NCBI GenBank assembly: GCA_947384955.1
Contig: CANDJC010000005.1
Span: 2,268 to 66,267 of the forward strand
Length of the DNA stretch: 64,000 bases
From: an uncultured Eubacterium sp.
Lineage (GTDB): Bacteria > Bacillota > Clostridia > Lachnospirales > Lachnospiraceae
Reading direction: 5' to 3'
In this document: one piece after another, positions 29,213-38,951 of the stretch
Layout of the letters: the number at the start of each line of letters is the position of its first letter
Numbering within the stretch: position 1 is the stretch's first letter
The notes under the pieces: model-generated
What the model saw: only the letters and a program-made list of their open reading frames with translations
What the model was told of the DNA's origin: nothing
The model's database searches: none
Translations under genes and position numbers: made by a program

Positions 29213-29306
29213 GTGATACTCCTTTTGGTGGTTGTTTTTATGGTCGATAGCACTATAGCATATTTATGAGTGCAGTGCAAGGGGAGAAGAAGCTGCATGA
29301 GCATTT

Positions 29307-32300
29307 CTAATAGAAATTCCAGTCTGGAAAGTTTTTCTGCAGTTTTTTCTTCTGTTTTTTGGTCAGCATTTGTTTGTCATAGTTAAGCAGGAGATTTTGA
29401 CTGGTAAACTGGGATAGTTCTTTGTATAGTTCAGGTATGTGTGTTCCACAAATTGACAGCAGTTCTAAAGGCAGGTTTTTTAAATCTGAAACAGTGTCTG
29501 TTTGTGTATAGTTCAGGTATAAGTATTCCAGTCTGCTGCATGCGGAAAGGGGGCTCAGGTCTTTTGCGGGTGCAGAGTCCAGATTCAGTATTTCGAGTTC
29601 TTTCAGCGATGACAGGGCTGATAAATCGGATACATCTGATTTTGCGCAGGACAGGAATTTTAATCTGGTCAGGTTTTTGAGGTCTGATAAATCAGAAGAC
29701 TTTAAACCGTCCAGCGATAAATTTTCCAGATTTGTTATGGAATTTAATGCTTGTAAATCTGACAGCAAAATACAGTGATTCAGATTTAGTGTGTGCAGGT
29801 TTTTCATATTCTGTAATCCTTCCAGAGTCTGCAGCTGATCCATGTTATCTGCGCAGAGTGTGTGCAGGCTTAAACAGGAAGACAAGGCTGTCAGATCTCG
29901 GACCGAAGCCGTAGTAATATCTGCAATTCTTAAATCAGCAGCATTTGCAAGCCATTGTATGGATGGCAGACAGGCACCTTTTGCTGATATGTTTTTTAGG
30001 TTATTAAATCCTGAAGATTCAAAAAAGCAGTTTTGTGAAAAACTGCATTCGTCCAGATTCAGAAAAGACAGGTATTTCAGCTTTGAAAGCGGAGTAATGT
30101 CTTCAATAATCATATTGGACAGTGAAAGACTAGAGATGCCTGGCAGGGATGATAACATATCTAAGTTCAAGGGTTTTTCTTTCCCGCAGCTGTCAATGTG
30201 GAGTGAAATCAGAGAAGATGCATCCGAAAGGCCGGATATGTTATTGATTTGAACTCCGTCTATTGAAAAAGCAAGTAAACAGGGAAGGTTTTTAATAAAA
30301 TCCAGGTTTTTAAGGCTCGTACTAATCCTGGTGTTTTGTATGCTTAAAGCTTCCAGACTGACAAGGCTGTTCAAAAAATCGGCATTTAAAATTTTTGCAT
30401 TTAACAGGTATAGGTTTTTTAAATTGGACAGTTCCGCAATAGCCTGAAAATCTGCCGCTTCTATGTCTTTTAGTTCCAGTTCGGTCAGCCGTTTTAAATC
30501 AGCAAGAAAGTAAACATCCGATATGTTTGCAAGGGATGCTAGTTTTAAAGATGTTAGTTTTACGAGATTTTTTATGGTATCGTAGTTTTTGCAGGTTCCG
30601 ATATTAAGGTCTAATGTTTCTAAATATTTAAGCGGTTCCAGGAATTGTAAATCCAATTCTTTTTCGGAATTGCCTGAAAAGCTTTTAAATTTGTGAATGC
30701 GTAAGTTTTTTAAATCATACAGTCCCGAGAGAGGGGTATAGTCTAACTGTTCGTCTGATTTTATCTGCAGGTCAAGAGTCTCTAAAGGCAGAGATTTTAA
30801 AGGATTAAGACTGTGAATGCTAATGGGCTCGTCTCCAGAAATTGTTAGAGTTTCTAAATGAGTCAGAACCGAAAGCCTGTTCAAATCCAGGTTTGTTTTT
30901 TTTATGCAGCAGATATCCAGTTCCTTTAATCCAGCCAGGGATTCAAATGGCATATTTGCAGGAATGCTGCTGACTCCTAGCTTTTCCAGCTTTTTCAGGG
31001 CTTCCAGATTTTCCAGTCCGTACTGCATATTATAAATGAACAGATTTTTTAAATTCGGTAAGGAGTGCAGCTGGTTTAAGTTTACATCAGTATTTGAAAT
31101 GCTTAATGTTTCCAGGCTGGGAAAAGCTGTAAAATCAAACTGGCTGTTAAACGAATAATCGTCTGCAAAGAGTGATTTCAGCTGATTCATTTTAGGAAGC
31201 GACTGCCATACGGAATCATTACAGCTGCTAATATTTAGAGATTCCAGGTTTTTCAGCTGGCGAACAATGCTGATTTTTGATAAGTTCAGGCAGTTTTCCA
31301 GATTCAGGTTTTTTAGCTTCGGGAGGTTTGCTGCAAAATCGATATTGCTGATTTTTACTGCATATAAAATAAGTGATTCCAAATCTGTTAAATCGTTTAG
31401 CACAGAGAAATCACGGATAGAAGTATTTGAAGACAAGTCCAGGATACGCAGTTTTTTTAATACAGAAAGAGGCTGAATATCCTGTAAGTCGTCATTATAG
31501 CTTAAGTCTATATTAGTCAGGCCTGTCAGATATTTCAGGCCTGAGATATCACACAGTCTGTTTTTAGAAAGATTGACAGATTTAATGCCGGATAGGTCAT
31601 GCGGGTCGTATGCTGCGAAAAAATTCAGGTCTGTCAGCTCCAGGTCGGATAAATTCAGTTCCAGTATTCCCTGTTCATTTGTATACGGATTTAAAACCGG
31701 TGATTTTTGCTCAGGCAGTATGGCAGATGTATCATAGGATGCATCGGATACAGATAATTCAGGTGTAACCGAAGAAGTTACCGGAGTTTTTTTAGAGGCT
31801 GCAACGATAAAATACAGGATGCCGGATACTGCTAATGCGCTGATGACAGCGGTCTGGATGATTTTTCTGCGAAAAGGTTTCTGGTACAAATCGGTAAGAA
31901 GAGCGTCCATTGTCTGATACCGTTTCGAAGAACTGCGCTCAAGGCCCCGCATGAGTGCTTTCTGAATGGCAGGATTTATGCGTATGCCAAGTCTGGATGG
32001 CGTTATAAGTCCATTTGTTTTAGGAGACTGGCCGGTAATCAGCCGGTATATGGAAGCGCAGTAAGCATAAACATCTGTATAAGGGCCCTGTTCAGCACTT
32101 TGCAGCTGTTCTAGCGGAGAGTAATCCCGGTTACATATATCATTATTTTTATTATGATTATAAAATTCTCTGGAAGCTCCGAAATCAATCAGTACAGTCT
32201 GGAAAGTTTCCCCTGAAAGATTTATCATAATATTTTCAGGACTGATGTCACGGTGAAGGGTTTCATGGCGGTGAAGTCTGGCAATTGTCTGGCCTGCCGG

Positions 32301-32831
32301 GTACATCAGTTTTAGAGTTTCTTTCACTGACAGGCGACCATCTTTGCTTTGTGCATATTCATTCAGATTCTGCCCTTTAATAAAGTCCATGACCATATAT
32401 GCAGTATCATTTTCCATGAAATAGTCAGATACAGATACAATTCCGCTCAGATTAATTTCTCTGCTTAAATATGCAAGAGTTCGTGCTTCGTCATAAAAAT
32501 TATTTAGTATGTCCTGATAATCGCTTTTAACTGTATTTTCTAAAAGGCAGATCCGATTCCCGCTCGGCATGTCTGTATTACGGCAGATGAATTCTTTGGG
32601 AAAACATTCTTTGACTGCAGTTTTAATATCCAGACGGGTGTCATATCCGGTATAGGTAATTCCAAAACTTCCCTCGCCTATGGCGGGACCTATACAGTAG
32701 CGGTTTTTCAAAATGCTTTTGAGCGGAAGGTGATATGGCGGGACGGTGCCTGTGTTATTGAATAATGAACATAAATTTTTGCTGTTTTGCTGCTTTGGGC
32801 AGTTCTTACATAAACACATGAATATAGACAT
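29307..32831 (-). CDS. Transmembrane Ser/Thr (Hanks) kinase with a long C-terminal LRR ectodomain
   Basis: GEGSFGITY, AVKE, HRDISPEN, DFG intact; TM IIQTAVISALAVSGILYFIV; about 30 internalin-like LxxLxLxxN/C repeats; likely start ATG 32819. Confidence 0.9.
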   Translation of the reverse strand: MSIFMCLCKNCPKQQNSKNLCSLFNNTGTVPPYHLPLKSILKNRYCIGPAIGEGSFGITYTGYDTRLDIKTAVKECFPKEFICRNTDMPSGNRICLLENTVKSDYQDILNNFYDEARTLAYLSREINLSGIVSVSDYFMENDTAYMVMDFIKGQNLNEYAQSKDGRLSVKETLKLMYPAGQTIARLHRHETLHRDISPENIMINLSGETFQTVLIDFGASREFYNHNKNNDICNRDYSPLEQLQSAEQGPYTDVYAYCASIYRLITGQSPKTNGLITPSRLGIRINPAIQKALMRGLERSSSKRYQTMDALLTDLYQKPFRRKIIQTAVISALAVSGILYFIVAASKKTPVTSSVTPELSVSDASYDTSAILPEQKSPVLNPYTNEQGILELNLSDLELTDLNFFAAYDPHDLSGIKSVNLSKNRLCDISGLKYLTGLTNIDLSYNDDLQDIQPLSVLKKLRILDLSSNTSIRDFSVLNDLTDLESLILYAVKISNIDFAANLPKLKNLNLENCLNLSKISIVRQLKNLESLNISSCNDSVWQSLPKMNQLKSLFADDYSFNSQFDFTAFPSLETLSISNTDVNLNQLHSLPNLKNLFIYNMQYGLENLEALKKLEKLGVSSIPANMPFESLAGLKELDICCIKKTNLDLNRLSVLTHLETLTISGDEPISIHSLNPLKSLPLETLDLQIKSDEQLDYTPLSGLYDLKNLRIHKFKSFSGNSEKELDLQFLEPLKYLETLDLNIGTCKNYDTIKNLVKLTSLKLASLANISDVYFLADLKRLTELELKDIEAADFQAIAELSNLKNLYLLNAKILNADFLNSLVSLEALSIQNTRISTSLKNLDFIKNLPCLLAFSIDGVQINNISGLSDASSLISLHIDSCGKEKPLNLDMLSSLPGISSLSLSNMIIEDITPLSKLKYLSFLNLDECSFSQNCFFESSGFNNLKNISAKGACLPSIQWLANAADLRIADITTASVRDLTALSSCLSLHTLCADNMDQLQTLEGLQNMKNLHTLNLNHCILLSDLQALNSITNLENLSLDGLKSSDLSDLKNLTRLKFLSCAKSDVSDLSALSSLKELEILNLDSAPAKDLSPLSACSRLEYLYLNYTQTDTVSDLKNLPLELLSICGTHIPELYKELSQFTSQNLLLNYDKQMLTKKQKKKLQKNFPDWNFY

Positions 32832-32837
32832 CTCCTT

Positions 32838-35327
32838 TTAATATACTATATAGCAGTCGGGCAGCCATTTTTTCAGGTCTGCAATGTCCTTTTTTGTAAC
32901 ATTCGTATCAGAAAGGGTAACTGCAGAAAGGTTTGTTAAATCTTTCAGAATACGGATATCTGAAAAGGAAGTGTGAGCAAGTGAAAGGTATTTAAGCTGG
33001 GTTAAATTTTTTATAAAAGAAAAGTCGGAAGCCGGGATGCCTGGCAATAAAAGTGATGTTATTGATGTTTTATCCTGAAGCGGCGACAAATCTTTTATTT
33101 TTGTTTGCGAAAGATTCACTTCGCTTAGTTTATGACAGTCGGCGATGTCATAGATATCTGTAATTGGACAGTCCGATATTTTAAGGACTTTCAGGTTTTT
33201 GTTTGCAGCCAGACCTTTTAAACTGTGAAGCGGAGCATGAAATAATTCCAGTATAGAAAGATCTGAAGTTTCCAGTCCGGAGAGGTCTTTCAGCGACTGT
33301 GCATCGAAAATGGACAGGAGCATCAGGTTAGGCAGATCAGCAAGCGTGCTTAAATTGGTTATATTTTTGCCAGGCAGCTGTAATGCTTTGAGTGCTTTCA
33401 GATGGCTTAAATCTGACAAATCTTGAACAGGAAGATCAGGAAGAGTCAGATATTCCAGCTTATTCAGCTGCTGAATTGGAGTCAGGTTCGAAACAGCTGT
33501 ATTTTCGATATTCAGCACTGTTAACTGGGAAAGATTTTCTAATCCCGAAAGGCTTGTTAAATTTTTACATCCAGAAAGATACAGTTTTTCCATCTGATTC
33601 ATATGAGAAAAATCCTTGCAGTCCTGTAATGAGGCGGTGTGGTTTAGCCGCAGCATTCGCAGATTCAGTTCGCGCAGGAATTGGAAGCTGTCTGGGATAT
33701 TTTTAGAACCATCCAGGTACTGCAGAGCTGCCAGGCTGCTGATTGGAGAAAAATCTGAAATATTGTTTTCAGATATGTCCAGAACCTGTAAATTTGTCAT
33801 ATCTTTTAAAAAGGAAATATCAGACAGCTGGTTTGAACTGCAATTTAACTGCTTTAATGATGGAATTTTAGTTATTGGCAGTATTTTTTTAAAATAAGAA
33901 TCCTGATTCTGTTTTTTTTCTCTTGTATTGCTTAAATTCAGAATTTCGAGGGAAGCTGCAGACTGCAGCGGTTCATAGTTTAGAATATTCTGGCAGTCTG
34001 ATAAGTCTAGGATTTTTAGCTTTTTCATTAAACTCAGCTTCGATATATCTTCCAAATGGTCATTATTATAGAGATATAGTTTTTCTAGTGTCTCAGATAT
34101 AAATTCTATGCCGGTAAGGCTGTTTAGATAGCCGCGCTCTGTAAATGTACAGGATAAGTTCACTGCAGTGAGTCCCTTATATTCATCTTGTGAAAGAAAC
34201 CCAAGAGATGATCCGGGAATAGTAATACCGCATACGCCATAAGTTCCGCCAGAAGGAGTTTCACCATATTCTTCTGATTCAAAAAAATTCTGATTTAAAT
34301 CAATCAGGTCTTTTACAGCGGTGCTCTTAGTTGTGTTACTGGCTGTTTCGCTGCTTCCAGACTGCTCCGGGCCGTTGTCAGTCTGTGTGTAATTATCATC
34401 AGGCAGAATCTGCCCGGCATTATGCTGAACGGAGCTGCCGATAATAAACAGTAGCAAGACAGCACATACACTAGATAAAAAGATAACAATGCTGCGTATG
34501 GAAGTTTGCCTGATGATATTTTTATTATTTATGGCAGGTGATAATGGAGATGGTTCCCACATCTCTTCCATAAATTCAGACAAGCTGGACTGGCGTCTGT
34601 CTGGGTGCAGTGAGAGTGCTTTTTTTATTGCCCGCAGCTGTTTTTCAGAGACAAAAGGTTTTATATTATCTAAAAGCTTACAGCAGCCGGCTGTACGTTC
34701 GGATACAGGCATAGGATGGTTTCCAGTCATGCAGAAATAAATGAAAAGAGCCATTCTAAAAACATCCGTAGAAGCATTGATCTTATTTTGATTTAAGCCG
34801 CATTGTTCAGGAGCTTCATAAATACAGTTTTTAAAAGCGACAGTTTTTATATAAAATTTGGGACATCCTGAAATAATGCGGATGAATTTTATATCTCCCG
34901 TCGTTGTAATAAAAATTGACGATGGAACCAGGCGGGAAAAAAAGAAATTTTCATGCTGCATCTTTGCCAGAGTACGGCAAATGTTTTGCATAACGGGACA
35001 CAGCGTTTGCGTATCACATTTTCTATTAAAAAAGGAATCCTGTAAAGACATTCCTTCGGGGTATTCTTCGGCATAATAAAAGAATCCGTTTTCTTCAAAC
35101 AGGTCTGTAACCATGCTGATTTCAGGTATTTTTTTAGAAAGTTCCGAAGCTTGTTTTAAATATAAACGCCATATATGGGAAGATTCATACAGGCAGCACT
35201 GAATAAGCCGTACCCTGGTGCCGGTATGGGTGTCATATGTAATATATGAAAGTAAAGAATCTTCCTGGTTTTCCAGCTTTATCATGGTATATCTGTTCTG
35301 TAATTTTGTTTCCATAATGTTTATCAT
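32838..35327 (-). CDS. Transmembrane pseudokinase with a C-terminal LRR ectodomain
   Basis: Kinase-fold landmarks (LQNRY, YEAPEQ, STDVF, TGNHP, PDRR), but G-loop, VAIK, HRD and DFG are all lost; TM SIVIFLSSVCAVLLLFIIG; about 15-18 LRRs. Confidence 0.82.
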   Translation of the reverse strand: MINIMETKLQNRYTMIKLENQEDSLLSYITYDTHTGTRVRLIQCCLYESSHIWRLYLKQASELSKKIPEISMVTDLFEENGFFYYAEEYPEGMSLQDSFFNRKCDTQTLCPVMQNICRTLAKMQHENFFFSRLVPSSIFITTTGDIKFIRIISGCPKFYIKTVAFKNCIYEAPEQCGLNQNKINASTDVFRMALFIYFCMTGNHPMPVSERTAGCCKLLDNIKPFVSEKQLRAIKKALSLHPDRRQSSLSEFMEEMWEPSPLSPAINNKNIIRQTSIRSIVIFLSSVCAVLLLFIIGSSVQHNAGQILPDDNYTQTDNGPEQSGSSETASNTTKSTAVKDLIDLNQNFFESEEYGETPSGGTYGVCGITIPGSSLGFLSQDEYKGLTAVNLSCTFTERGYLNSLTGIEFISETLEKLYLYNNDHLEDISKLSLMKKLKILDLSDCQNILNYEPLQSAASLEILNLSNTREKKQNQDSYFKKILPITKIPSLKQLNCSSNQLSDISFLKDMTNLQVLDISENNISDFSPISSLAALQYLDGSKNIPDSFQFLRELNLRMLRLNHTASLQDCKDFSHMNQMEKLYLSGCKNLTSLSGLENLSQLTVLNIENTAVSNLTPIQQLNKLEYLTLPDLPVQDLSDLSHLKALKALQLPGKNITNLSTLADLPNLMLLSIFDAQSLKDLSGLETSDLSILELFHAPLHSLKGLAANKNLKVLKISDCPITDIYDIADCHKLSEVNLSQTKIKDLSPLQDKTSITSLLLPGIPASDFSFIKNLTQLKYLSLAHTSFSDIRILKDLTNLSAVTLSDTNVTKKDIADLKKWLPDCYIVY

Positions 35328-35331
35328 TTCC

Positions 35332-36639
35332 TTAAATGTATTTGTCAGCTGCTTTTTTACGGGGCATATGAAATATCAGGTTTTCGTTTGCGAGAGTGAT
35401 TGTGCAGCCGTCTTCCAGTTCGGTTCTTCCAGTTATTTCTATATCGTTGACATAGGTGCCGTTTGTGGAATTCAGGTCACAGAGAAAAGCTCTGATATTT
35501 TCAAAATCAATTGAAATGGAAGCATGTTTACTGCTAACCAGAACATTTCCTTCGACTGTGAAATCACAGTTATCGGAACTGCCGATAATAAACTCTTTTT
35601 TGCGAATACGAATTCGGGTCTGAGTTCGCTGCTGCAAGAGAGAAAAATGCTCCATTTTAACAGTGCTGCCGCTGCCTTTGCTGCCAGAAAAATTGTTCTT
35701 ATTTAGGTCATTCATATGAAAAGTATTTTGCTGGCTGAAAGAATCAGCTGCTGTTTTACTGATATCAGGGTTATCAGTGCTGGCTGGTGAAACGGTCAGC
35801 AGCTGAGACACATTAGATTCTGGCGTCTGGGCTGAAATCAGCGCATGGATATTCTGGAAAAACTCAGTCAGAATCTCATTGTAGTCTGATTTGTTTCCTG
35901 GCAGACTGATAACTGTTACATTTCGGTGTTTAAAATTAATAATCTCTTCCATGTCGGCATTTACCATGATACAGTAAGCACGCTTCTGTAATTCACTGAG
36001 ACGTGCATTCATGGTCTGCCAGATGCTTCGAATATCGTAGTCATCAAAGCTGTAGCCAATTAGAAGAGGCGTATGGGTGAGAAACATGCCAGATATATAT
36101 TCTGTAAGCAGACGCTTCTTATCTGTAAATGTGTCATAGTCATTTTCTGTAATGATTAGCTCTTCTGGGCGTTTAAAATCACCATGAAGTTTTATAAGTT
36201 TCACATATCCTTCTAAATCTACGGCTAGTTCCTGGTGAGAATAAATCGGAACTGACAGCCATCCGGATGCTTGCAGGGCATTTTCTAATAAAAAGTCAAA
36301 ATTGGTTGTAAAAATAATATCATGAAATACACTGCATAATGCAGTATGGGCGGATCCGGGTTTTATTCTGGCAGAACAGAGTAATTCTGAAAGCAGCTGG
36401 ACTAATTCCAGGCGGCCGTTTTCGGCTTCATATGCTGATAATGCCTGCAAGGCATTTTTATAAGAAAAGCCTTTTAACCGGGATGCAGCATAACGTCCAA
36501 GCTGTTCCCAGTCTGGCATAGTTATTTCAGGCGGCAGCAGTGCGTTTTTTGAAAATCCGGCGCCGATAATAGGAATCACTTTATGGCTGATAAGATTTTT
36601 TATGAGTCTGTCGGGCAGATAGGATAAGTATCTGGACAT
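35332..36639 (-). CDS. SIR2-like (SIR2_2) domain fused to a C-terminal FHA domain
   Basis: IIGAGFS, IFTTNFD, KLHGD, IGYSFDD (SIR2); IIG-S, VSSKHA, DLNSTNGTYVND (FHA); RBS AAGGAG before ATG 36639 (track start 36687). Confidence 0.88.
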   Translation of the reverse strand: MSRYLSYLPDRLIKNLISHKVIPIIGAGFSKNALLPPEITMPDWEQLGRYAASRLKGFSYKNALQALSAYEAENGRLELVQLLSELLCSARIKPGSAHTALCSVFHDIIFTTNFDFLLENALQASGWLSVPIYSHQELAVDLEGYVKLIKLHGDFKRPEELIITENDYDTFTDKKRLLTEYISGMFLTHTPLLIGYSFDDYDIRSIWQTMNARLSELQKRAYCIMVNADMEEIINFKHRNVTVISLPGNKSDYNEILTEFFQNIHALISAQTPESNVSQLLTVSPASTDNPDISKTAADSFSQQNTFHMNDLNKNNFSGSKGSGSTVKMEHFSLLQQRTQTRIRIRKKEFIIGSSDNCDFTVEGNVLVSSKHASISIDFENIRAFLCDLNSTNGTYVNDIEITGRTELEDGCTITLANENLIFHMPRKKAADKYI

Positions 36640-36706
36640 TGCATAAACTCCTTTCTGGGCAGGTTTGGTTAATAAATGCTTTTTCATATAAATAAAACCT
36701 GATTAC

Positions 36707-36735
36707 ATTTTATAAGTAATTGAGAGATTTGTAAA
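36707..36735 (-). promoter_or_regulatory. Sigma-A promoter of the SIR2-FHA/kinase operon
   Basis: On the minus strand TTTACA-17 nt-TAAAAT, about 70 nt upstream of the SIR2 start. Confidence 0.65.
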
Positions 36736-37160: not shown

Positions 37161-37292
37161 ATGGAGGAACTGGTACGTCAGGTTCTGCTGTTTGGATGGG
37201 ATATTTTGAAAATTGTACTGGCAGTAAAGGCAGCGTGGATTGCGTATATTATTTATGGAATTCATAAAGGATTTATTCATTATTCAGCGTAA
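37161..37292 (+). CDS. Small hydrophobic protein (43 aa)
   Basis: Below the track cutoff. AAGGAGG RBS; MEELVRQVLLFGWDILKIVLAVKAAWIAYIIYGIHKGFIHYSA*; one TM-length helix. Confidence 0.5.
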   Translation: MEELVRQVLLFGWDILKIVLAVKAAWIAYIIYGIHKGFIHYSA

Positions 37293-37634
37293 TTAAAAAA
37301 GAATGTCTGGTGTACTGGCTCCAGACATTCTTTTTTCTAGTTAGTGTGGCGGCAGTTTTGTTATTTTGTTACAAAATGCTGCCCCGGATGTATATTTTTG
37401 TTGTGTTCTGCATATGCGTATGTTATAATCCGTATAAAGCATATTTTCTTCATGCAGAGATTCCGTATCTTGCATGCCAGGGGGACATATCCCGTCAGAA
37501 AGACAATTCTTGCCGGCTGCCGTTCAGGCACGCTGCAGCCGAAATCACAGAAAATCCATGCTTTAAAATCATAAAAAAACAGGGCAGGGGTTTTCCGGGA
37601 GAAGGCCCCTGCGGCATACAGGAGGAAGACAGAA

Positions 37635-38951
37635 ATGAAAAATGAAACGGCAGAAAAGAGGGCCGTACAGGGGAATCCGGCAGGAGCGGGAGTGAATGCG
37701 GCATCGCATGCGGCATCTATAAGCAGCGCGGAGGAATACGGCAGGATTACCGGGCAGCGAAGGGCAGCGGACGGAGTGATGAAGGAGCTGCTGAAAAATG
37801 CCAGGTTTACAGGGGCGCTGCTGGCAGCCCTGCTCAGGGAGCTGGAAGGAGAGACGCTGGATGATTTCTGCAGGCACACGGGTGCCGATGTGCTTACGGG
37901 AAGCTCGCTGGGAGGCCTGGCCACGGAAGTCGGGAGCCTTTATACGAAGGACATCCGGCTGGACCTTGTGTTTGAGCATGCGGCGGCCGGGATGATGCTG
38001 AGGATAAACGAGGAGGCTCAGACGAAGCAGAAATCGTTTCAGGAAAGGAACCTGAAGTCCTATCCGCTGACCGCGCGGGCAGTCTATTATGCATCGCTTG
38101 CGGTGGCGACACAGCTTCAGGCAATAGACGAATACCATAAAATCAGGAAAGCATACAGCGTATGGCTCTGCTACGAGCGTCCGGTTCCAGACATGAGGGA
38201 GCCGGTCATCCGGTACAGCCTGCGGCCGGAAGAGGAGTATAAATATAAAGACGGCACGCCGCTGACAGAGTGCAGAAGGAAATATGACAGCGGGGACCTG
38301 ATGGGGATCGTGCTGGTATCCGTGCCGGACGTGGAGCGGGTGTATGGAGACAGCGCCCTTCTGCACAGCGGAAAATACAGTGAAGAAATGATAACGGAGC
38401 TGTATTATCTGCTTTCGGAAAAAACAGACAGCAGACAGAGAAAACAGTATTATTATGACCGCGGGATTATCAAGCGCGGAAGCGAGGAGGGAAACATGGT
38501 GTCAGCAATTGAGGAATTAAAACAGGCAGCGGAAAACGAGAGAAGAAACATGACGTCAGTAATGGAAGAATTAAAACAGGCAGCGGAAGACGAGAGAAGA
38601 AACATGACGTCGGCAATGGAAGAATTAAAACAGGCAGCGGAAAACGAGAGAAGAAGCATGACGTCGGCAATGGAGGAATTAAAACAATCAGCAGAAGACG
38701 AGAGAAAATGGAAAGAAACATTTAAGAGGAAAGCAGAAGAATCGGAAAGGAAGGCAGGGGAATCAGCAAGGAAACTGGAAGAATCCAAGAAAAAGGCATC
38801 AGAAGCAGAACGTGCAGTAGTGTCATTAACTGTGAATATGGGAAAATACAGCGGCCTGGACATACAGGGGCAGATATCCATGATAGCGGAACAGTTAAAG
38901 ATAGGGACAGAAGAAGCCGGGGAGCTGTACCGGGTATATTCCGGCTGCTGA
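37635..38951 (+). CDS. Rpn-like PD-(D/E)XK nuclease family protein with a repeat coiled-coil C-terminus
   Basis: IRLDLVF...RINEEAQ...ARAVYYAS...KIRKAYSVWLC follows the Rpn/'PD-(D/E)XK transposase' pattern; RBS GGAGG. Confidence 0.75.
   Translation: MKNETAEKRAVQGNPAGAGVNAASHAASISSAEEYGRITGQRRAADGVMKELLKNARFTGALLAALLRELEGETLDDFCRHTGADVLTGSSLGGLATEVGSLYTKDIRLDLVFEHAAAGMMLRINEEAQTKQKSFQERNLKSYPLTARAVYYASLAVATQLQAIDEYHKIRKAYSVWLCYERPVPDMREPVIRYSLRPEEEYKYKDGTPLTECRRKYDSGDLMGIVLVSVPDVERVYGDSALLHSGKYSEEMITELYYLLSEKTDSRQRKQYYYDRGIIKRGSEEGNMVSAIEELKQAAENERRNMTSVMEELKQAAEDERRNMTSAMEELKQAAENERRSMTSAMEELKQSAEDERKWKETFKRKAEESERKAGESARKLEESKKKASEAERAVVSLTVNMGKYSGLDIQGQISMIAEQLKIGTEEAGELYRVYSGC
38496..38711 (+). 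repeat. Four in-frame 54-bp tandem repeats (18 aa, M-x-S-x-x-EELKQ-x-AE-x-ER)
   Basis: Units begin with ATG at 38496, 38550, 38604, 38658. Confidence 0.9.

Follow-up and report, generated by a model that had tools for sequence, protein, structure and literature searches.

FHA domains read phospho-threonine (phospho-Thr), usually with a hydrophobic residue at the +3 position. In the animal Toll-like receptor/IRAK/TIFA system, such a domain acts as a phospho-Thr adaptor alongside leucine-rich repeat (LRR) ectodomains, TIR domains, and kinases together with pseudokinases; in plants, pairs of single-pass LRR receptors (FLS2-BAK1, BAK1-BIR2, CLV2-CRN), some with a pseudokinase member, read extracellular peptides or patterns. 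As far as we are aware, bacterial SIR2 and TIR NADase effectors have until now been known as triggered within the cell, by phage proteins, nucleic acids, or signal nucleotides. Here we describe an operon from an uncultured Eubacterium sp. of the Lachnospiraceae (contig CANDJC010000005.1; the whole stretch analyzed, 64,000 nucleotides [nt], is hereinafter the window) that codes for a SIR2-FHA protein and two transmembrane (TM) LRR receptors, one with a catalytically complete Hanks-type kinase domain and the other with a pseudokinase domain. On balance, and with moderate confidence, we read the three genes as one module, in which a phospho-relay through both receptors would control the FHA-tethered NADase.

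The closest precedent for such an arrangement comes from Mycobacterium tuberculosis, where PknB phosphorylates the pseudokinase of MviN, which in turn recruits the FHA protein FhaA (PMC12599244). That system and the one proposed here would share a TM Hanks kinase, a membrane-anchored pseudokinase acting as a scaffold, and FHA recruitment, and the precedent supports reading the dead kinase as a docking platform. The two differ in that MviN joins its pseudokinase to a lipid II flippase and carries the phospho-Thr in a C-terminal tail, the sensor of PknB is PASTA rather than LRR, and FhaA is enzyme-free, with cell-wall control as the output; moreover, the MviN family (ActPs3) belongs to actinobacteria and has no sequence relationship with the clade in the window. 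The PpkA-Fha1-PppA pathway of the type VI secretion system (T6SS) likewise relies on a Hanks kinase that sits in the membrane and has its sensor domain outside, on an FHA reader, and on a PP2C phosphatase for reset; however, it has no pseudokinase, LRR, or NADase, its output is assembly of the secretion apparatus, and the window has no T6SS genes. On the effector side, Thoeris ThsA, DSR2, and Kongming KomC share the SIR2_2 catalytic domain, in which the GAGxS, TTN[FY]D, and HG motifs are likewise intact; their activity is controlled by phage proteins or by a ligand domain (SLOG or another), whereas the regulatory domain in the window is an FHA. The locus does not classify as Thoeris: the SIR2 domain agrees, but the C-terminal domain is an FHA rather than SLOG, Macro, or TM, and there is no TIR gene in the operon to serve as an adjacent ThsB. 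The eukaryotic parallels are analogies only. Compared with the plant LRR receptor kinases, the topology in the window is inverted (kinase N-terminal, LRR C-terminal) and the LRRs are of the internalin type, and we found no evidence for common descent of the two LRR-kinase fusions. The Toll-like receptor/IRAK/TIFA system shares its domain vocabulary with the module, inclusive of TIR-TM-LRR fusions among the relatives described below; however, the wiring differs, in that the TIR or SIR2 domain here is an enzyme-type effector and there is no Death domain.

Among Hanks-type defense kinases, Stk2, PD-T4-6, MAD6 of MADS, and PglW of BREX are the best PADLOC matches of the window kinase domain, but all of these are cytoplasmic and without a TM-LRR part, a paired pseudokinase, or an FHA-NADase. 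We rejected PD-T4-6, MADS, and BREX as assignments: only the generic kinase domain matched (MAD6, 79 versus 460 bits; PglW, 27 versus 990) and no partner genes occur in the window. Also rejected were a PASTA kinase of the PknB/PrkC/Stk1 type (no PASTA domain; NCBIfam PknB_PASTA_kin 107.6 bits versus a cut-off of 450) and a class 1 internalin (NCBIfam score 131 versus 1600), the N-terminus being a cytoplasmic kinase domain followed by a TM segment even though the LRR type is similar. None of the curated Pfam, NCBIfam, and PADLOC models went beyond generic domains at cut-off. The full-text literature, with subscription-only papers outside the scope, yielded neither SIR2-FHA nor TIR-FHA fusions, nor any bacterial LRR receptor kinase described together with a pseudokinase or an FHA protein, nor NADases or anti-phage systems gated by a kinase and an FHA. 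Hence, while each component is of a known kind (Hanks kinase, pseudokinase, FHA, PP2C, SIR2/TIR NADase), their combination looks undescribed. If the relay is real, effector classes of the SIR2/TIR type would be wired to TM LRR receptors, with a kinase, a conserved pseudokinase, and an FHA reader as the connecting parts, providing an outside-in trigger for NAD+ depletion or TIR signaling in bacteria. Bacterial pseudokinases for which a role has been proposed are few, and an LRR-linked family from Firmicutes would join them; with only three genes, the operon would also be a compact model of the service that a dead kinase renders to a live one; given that the domain set is that of plant and animal innate immune receptors, it would further bear on how this vocabulary was assembled in evolution.

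The operon and its two receptors

The three genes are intact, co-directional open reading frames (ORFs) on the minus strand, coding for proteins of 451, 829, and 1174 amino acids (aa), and are separated by gaps of 4 nt (SIR2-FHA/pseudokinase-LRR) and 6 nt (pseudokinase-LRR/kinase-LRR). A single promoter-like site is common to all of them. Their features, in the order of transcription, are:

36707..36735, minus strand: promoter-like site TTTACA-17-TAAAAT just 5′ of the SIR2-FHA start (consensus match only)
35332..36687, minus strand: SIR2_2-FHA effector gene, 451-aa ORF without a TM segment (Pfam SIR2_2 E 1.1e-23, FHA E 1.7e-14)
35818..36639, minus strand: SIR2 domain of the NADase type (AlphaFold pLDDT, i.e., per-residue model confidence, about 85-90; residues 1-270 of a 435-aa form)
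35353..35622, minus strand: FHA domain, non-canonical, with G-S for G-R and with S-x-K-H and S-T-N-G-T kept (CHFR and FhaA alignments, column table)
32838..35327, minus strand: pseudokinase-TM-LRR receptor gene, 829 aa (ORF, Pfam, alignments, fold model)
34542..35327, minus strand: cytoplasmic pseudokinase domain (alignment; AlphaFold/Foldseek kinase fold)
34842..34844, minus strand: codon of Thr162 (K-T-V-A-F), proposed phospho-acceptor and FHA docking site, invariant in five sequences from four lineages
34428..34499, minus strand: single TM helix of the pseudokinase receptor (hydropathy scan)
32841..34424, minus strand: stalk plus internalin-type LRR ectodomain, the extracellular part of the pseudokinase receptor (Pfam LRR_4 E 5e-33)
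29307..32831, minus strand: active-type Hanks kinase-TM-LRR receptor gene, 1174 aa (ORF, Pfam, motif alignment)
31878..32714, minus strand: RD kinase domain, catalytically complete by sequence (Pfam Pkinase E 2.9e-26; PDB 5hnv PpkA E 1e-30)
32109..32186, minus strand: activation segment from DFG to PLE, Thr-free (alignment)
31797..31865, minus strand: single TM helix of the kinase receptor (hydropathy scan)
29310..31796, minus strand: extracellular LRR ectodomain of the kinase receptor, about 830 aa (Pfam LRR_4, LRR_14, LRR_EndoS)

The kinase receptor matches Pfam Pkinase with 92.9 bits against a cut-off of 31.7, in addition to LRR_4/LRR_8, and an alignment recovers the full Hanks set (GEGSFG, AVK, the αC Glu, HRDISPEN, DFG, and SPLEQ), which predicts an active-type Hanks Ser/Thr kinase; its best solved relative is the T6SS kinase PpkA. 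The second receptor also has LRR_4/LRR_8 matches, but its Pkinase match (32.6 bits, E 7.1e-8) lies just over the same cut-off. When aligned with three live partner kinases, it has NQEDSL in place of the Gly loop GEGSFG, RLI(Q) in place of AVK (the VAIK motif of β3) with loss of the Lys, Gln for the αC Glu, FSRLVPSS in place of HRDISPEN with loss of the Asp and Asn, and ISG for DFG. It keeps YEAPEQ (the APE motif), TDVF, and HPDRR inclusive of the subdomain-XI Arg. An AlphaFold model of its residues 1-275 (pLDDT 82.7; pTM, the corresponding global score, 0.82) finds PknB and Stk1 as the best PDB matches in Foldseek (E 7e-15, TM-score 0.65-0.70). Together, alignment and model identify it as a predicted pseudokinase with the kinase fold kept and all six catalytic positions replaced. 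A hydropathy scan detects one hydrophobic TM segment in each receptor (kinase residues 324-347, pseudokinase residues 275-301), followed in both by a stalk rich in Ser, Thr, and Pro and then by internalin-type LRRs; with exactly one TM segment each, the kinase-like domains would be cytoplasmic and the LRRs outside.

The activation segment of the live kinase (DFGASREFYNHNKNNDICNRDYSPLEQ, residues 216-242) has no Thr; it does have Ser220, Ser238, and two Tyr. An earlier note on this DNA had described an active kinase with a Thr-free loop next to a dead one that has lost its catalytic motifs yet keeps YEAPEQ, TDVF, and PDRR on a kinase fold. Our alignments and model bear out each part of that description, and both ORFs are intact at the coordinates given above. 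The note had gone on to argue that, for want of a loop Thr, allosteric activation by the partner replaces loop phosphorylation. This does not follow, since Ser and Tyr remain in the live loop and related single-kinase systems devoid of any pseudokinase also have Ser there (KSLSVMLK).

Two side observations concern the kinase subfamily. A CxxC-x10-CxxC zinc ribbon starts the partner kinases at the related loci L015, L017, and L031 (loci and proteins from our searches carry L and P numbers) and in most relatives; in residues 1-24 of the window kinase (32760-32831) only C6, C8, C11, and C21 are kept, and the ribbon is accordingly degenerate. Many relatives from Clostridia (P0003-P0010, P0013, P0027, and others) are single polypeptides with 2-4 tandem kinase-like domains, of which typically one is catalytically complete and the rest degenerate, with a CxxC...CxxC zinc ribbon often preceding each.

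Thr162, the SIR2-FHA protein, and a possible relay

The SIR2-FHA gene lies 4 nt upstream of the receptor genes, outside the coordinates of the earlier note, and together with its TIR-FHA equivalents elsewhere shifts the question from how the kinase is switched on to which protein receives the phospho-Thr. In the pseudokinase activation segment the one invariant residue is Thr162, in the context [K/R/S]-T-x-x-[F/L], and it lies within residues 158-162, the sole disordered (low-pLDDT) stretch of the domain model. In a hidden Markov model alignment of related kinase domains, Thr is the commonest residue of this column (67/219), and the three aligned live partners have N, N, and S. The live kinase of L031, which is outside the 219-domain alignment, is Thr-free in its loop as well (KSMSVLLK). 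As judged from these alignments, catalytic residues and the loop Thr are distributed in a complementary fashion between the live and the dead kinase.

The likely true start of the SIR2-FHA protein is Met17 at 36639, after an AAAGGAG ribosome-binding site, which yields the 435-aa form. Its SIR2 motifs (GAGFSKN, TTNFDF, KLHGDF) are invariant, with the catalytic motifs intact; PADLOC retrieves ThsA (E 1.5e-27) and Dsr2 (E 1.2e-20), and the closest PDB sequences, ThsA, KomC, and DSR2, are all defense NADases. By sequence, the SIR2 domain is closest (45-50% identical) to that of hundreds of FHA-less SIR2_2 proteins of about 535 aa from gut Clostridia, which have another C-terminal domain; some of these occur in defense-type neighborhoods, and one adjoins a TIR gene. 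A scan of the genome collection with SIR2-FHA returned only such FHA-less proteins, and in a search of 5.8 billion proteins the SIR2-FHA fusion was found in only three clusters. The FHA domain is probably functional, with an uncertain ligand: the variant with G-S plus S-x-K-H is a conserved FHA subtype that is also seen in double-FHA proteins unrelated to this one. In an AlphaFold model of the full protein, the linker and FHA have a pLDDT <50, which makes the model uninformative on autoinhibition.

From these elements a relay can be proposed. An extracellular cue, for which a secreted peptide, a bacteriocin, or a phage are candidates, might bring together or rearrange both LRR receptors. The live kinase would then phosphorylate in trans, with Thr162 of the pseudokinase as the likeliest target, its T-x-x-[L/F] context fitting the preference of FHA domains for phospho-Thr with a +3 residue of this kind. 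The phosphorylated pseudokinase could act as a scaffold for the FHA-NADase, either drawing it to the membrane or setting it free, and the resulting shift in SIR2 activity would deplete NAD+ or yield a nucleotide product. At sister loci, a TIR domain stands in place of SIR2, and a PP2C phosphatase would reset the switch.

Several observations weigh against this relay. In all three SIR2-FHA lineages, the canonical phosphate-contacting G-R is replaced (G-S, G-A, G-S); the Ser, His, and Thr-Asn are kept, but the five residues of a canonical FHA domain are incomplete, and in the absence of this arginine, reading of phospho-Thr may be weak or altered. Given the Ser at the loop position and the lack of a pseudokinase in the single-kinase TIR-FHA systems mentioned above, the FHA target in those systems must be elsewhere. 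The window operon has no PP2C gene, although four are present elsewhere in the genome. At a syntenic locus of a related organism (L034), the gene order is fn3 adhesin, SIR2-FHA, 474-aa protein, and GGDEF-EAL, with no kinases, which indicates that the effector can persist without adjacent receptors. Finally, the loop alignments are uncertain, and the case for Thr162 draws on four independent lineages only.

Conservation of the dead kinase and exchange of effectors

The family is very rare. An exhaustive HMMER search over 1.84 billion representative proteins recovered the same loss pattern in only four cluster representatives (the window protein, P0002, P0014, and the fragment P0022), and a word-indexed homolog search with the pseudokinase N-terminus returned only the query itself. 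A scan with a pseudokinase profile additionally gave 12 metagenome loci with just 20-28% identity, which we judged to be ordinary kinases. We accordingly compared five ortholog sequences from four lineages, with L031 contributing a sequence close to P0022; all four lineages are known from metagenome-derived sequence. Despite mutual identities of only 22-35%, all of these orthologs are without the Gly loop, Lys, αC Glu, catalytic Asp/Asn, and DFG Asp, and all retain APEQC, TD[IV][YF], and the Arg. Maximum-likelihood analysis groups the pseudokinases in a single clade (support 100/100) and their partner kinases in another (97/96), with both clades branching alike (the window with L015, and L017 with L031); these mirrored trees imply that the pair has been inherited together since one ancient inactivation. 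The ratio of nonsynonymous to synonymous substitution (dN/dS) in the kinase-like domain is 0.18 between L017 and L031 and 0.31 between L015 and L008, consistent with purifying selection, which is stronger still on SIR2-FHA (dN/dS 0.12); for the window versus L015 the ratio is unusable, dS being saturated. The shared losses and the dN/dS values rule out a recent decay of the dead kinase, which the earlier note had named as the finding that would undo its proposal, and no ortholog with intact motifs was seen. Its view that the two receptors pair by a co-receptor logic gains support from conservation, co-divergence, and selection, whereas the step from the missing loop Thr to allosteric activation finds none.

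A 2025 review (PMC12599244) recognizes seven bacterial pseudokinase families, such as ActPs1-3, GLW, CP1, DYD, DLHK, and EssB/YukC; of these, GLW, from proteobacteria, has GLW in place of HRD and LLLL/W at β3, and no LRR-linked family is mentioned. Going by the descriptions in that review, the present clade, a Clostridia type with an LRR ectodomain, stands apart from the reviewed families, having FSR, VSW, FAN, or YGN at HRD and RLI, RLA, or RII at β3.

The pseudokinase-LRR gene evolves differently from its surroundings. Between L017 (L017:3789-6251) and L031 (L031:3529-6072), the two genes are 46% identical along their whole length, with synonymous sites saturated, and the four neighboring genes are 74-94% identical. 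This suggests either a cassette replacement or much faster evolution of this gene, which behaves like a replaced or fast-evolving specificity cassette. The same disparity could be read as the mark of an arms race rather than of ligand specificity; the pseudokinase receptor would then be a negative regulator or decoy that keeps the live kinase inactive, in the manner of BIR2 or of a bait for inhibitors. The related systems that function with a single kinase, where the pseudokinase would be an add-on modulator, also fit this idea; however, the loop Thr, which is invariant within T-x-x-[L/F] and missing in the live partner, is more in line with a substrate or scaffold than with an inhibitor alone, and we regard the decoy as rather unlikely. 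Inhibitor and scaffold roles are in any case not mutually exclusive.

The trio of the proposed phospho-relay recurs beyond the window. At about 40% identity, SIR2-FHA, pseudokinase-LRR, and kinase-LRR occur in a second species of the genus as well as in metagenome contigs that match it (L008, L015, L016). In two further lineages (L017 with P0014; L031 together with the fragment L030) we found a TIR version with the gene order TIR-FHA-FHA, PP2C, pseudokinase-LRR, kinase-LRR, and STAS. The receptor pair is constant, the NAD-processing effector is exchanged between SIR2 and TIR, and PP2C appears in the TIR version. TIR-FHA proteins as such are more widespread (about 40 clusters): all eight of the TIR-FHA loci that we read have a PP2C together with either one or two live Hanks kinases from the same subfamily, and 7/8 have STAS. 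The pseudokinase is an add-on in one branch. The module clade is found in 2/22 species of the genus and in 0/400 other genera of the family. With a GC content of 0.39 against 0.46 in its flanks, the window operon forms a bare low-GC island that adjoins a variable region; together, the effector types, the effector swap, the low GC, and the patchy distribution are typical of conflict systems.

A separate set of proteins, P0191-P0216 (e.g., P0194 in L036:8001-10019; P0198), comprises 480-700 aa polypeptides with an N-terminal cytoplasmic TIR_2 domain, one TM segment, and a C-terminal LRR ectodomain, an inverted Toll-like-receptor architecture. Their TIR domain is about 50% identical to that of the TIR-FHA proteins, and they come from Lachnospiraceae-type genomes. 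Such fusions link LRR ectodomains to this effector class at the fusion level.

What the receptors might sense is suggested by the surroundings of the TIR version. Six of the eight TIR-FHA/PP2C/kinase loci lie directly downstream of C39-peptidase ATP-binding cassette exporters and small peptides with double-glycine (GG) or Nif11-type leaders:

L017:1-3059, exporter-adjoining locus
L031:1-1420, exporter-adjoining locus
L032:619-11137, exporter-adjoining locus
L033:1714-10668, exporter-adjoining locus
L052:271-9158, exporter-adjoining locus
L053:879-8903, exporter-adjoining locus

One of the peptides passes the curated Nif11-leader model TIGR03798, the peptide cores are hydrophobic and cationic, as in bacteriocins, and a radical-SAM enzyme and an extracytoplasmic function (ECF) sigma factor occur at some of the loci. 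Each of them looks like a locus for a bacteriocin or a ribosomally synthesized and post-translationally modified peptide (RiPP) in which a Ser/Thr-kinase signaling arm replaces the two-component one. Going by these neighbors, secreted peptides or bacteriocins may be what the LRR receptors detect. Taken further, the whole module could serve extracellular peptide sensing (of self or foreign bacteriocins or RiPPs, in a quorum-like manner) rather than phage defense, with the LRRs binding a secreted peptide, like those of plant LRR receptor kinases, and the NADase and STAS outputs regulating production, immunity, or dormancy; STAS proteins, which act in partner switching, would suit this. We take this to be possible but doubtful: reading of the neighborhoods of the window operon and of its L015 counterpart showed no genes for peptides, exporters, STAS, or PP2C, the known role of SIR2 and TIR domains of this type is that of defense effectors that deplete NAD rather than of transcriptional outputs, and a ligand is not inferable from sequence. 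With no neighbors of the peptide or exporter kind, the window operon appears as a stripped three-gene form of the module.

The chromosomal site itself can be compared with L034, in which L034:61-14748 corresponds to window 23944-48577 with the same flanks (giant fn3 adhesin, 474-aa protein, GGDEF-EAL-REC). There the SIR2-FHA protein is 385 aa and linker-free, and both LRR receptors, ThiT, and the Rpn-like gene are missing; the same flanks with differing content mark the site as a variable hotspot. A kinase-free SIR2-FHA gene in the same position would be expected if there were no coupling at all, i.e., if two paralogous surface LRR proteins of the adhesin or internalin kind, one with a vestigial kinase, adjoined an independent SIR2 defense gene by chance. 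The internalin-type LRRs and the giant fn3 adhesin encoded near the operon point the same way. Nevertheless, this is very improbable: the gene order is conserved over four lineages with the effector swapped, the genes are separated by a few nt, the FHA domain would have no obvious use in the absence of a Ser/Thr kinase, and both the purifying selection on the pseudokinase domain and the mirrored trees speak for a maintained pair.

The phospho-relay can be extended to a broader reading, which we offer tentatively and regard as improbable as a whole. The kinase receptor and the fast-evolving pseudokinase receptor, the latter setting specificity, would detect a threat such as an adsorbing phage or a foreign bacteriocin at the cell surface before entry, and the loop phospho-Thr would dock and fire the FHA-tethered NADase (SIR2 or TIR). 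This would constitute cell-surface pattern recognition and would parallel, in prokaryotes and with the same set of domains, the receptor-kinase immunity of plants and the TLR-IRAK immunity of animals.

Other features around the operon

Between the stop of the kinase gene and thiT (29213-29306 of the window) there is no terminator-like site, and a promoter-like site (TTGCAC-17-TATAGT) precedes thiT; with no terminator-like site 3′ of the kinase gene, read-through from the operon into thiT is possible. On the other side, a plus-strand gene (37635-38951) codes for a 438-aa protein with four Met-initiated repeats of 18 aa. Searches of this protein against Pfam and NCBIfam gave coiled-coil noise only, and its 'Rpn-like' label is not confirmed with these libraries. 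The AT-rich gap between this gene and the promoter region of the operon contains a plus-strand ORF (37161-37292) for a strongly hydrophobic protein of 43 aa, followed by a perfect hairpin with T-runs near 37300-37345.

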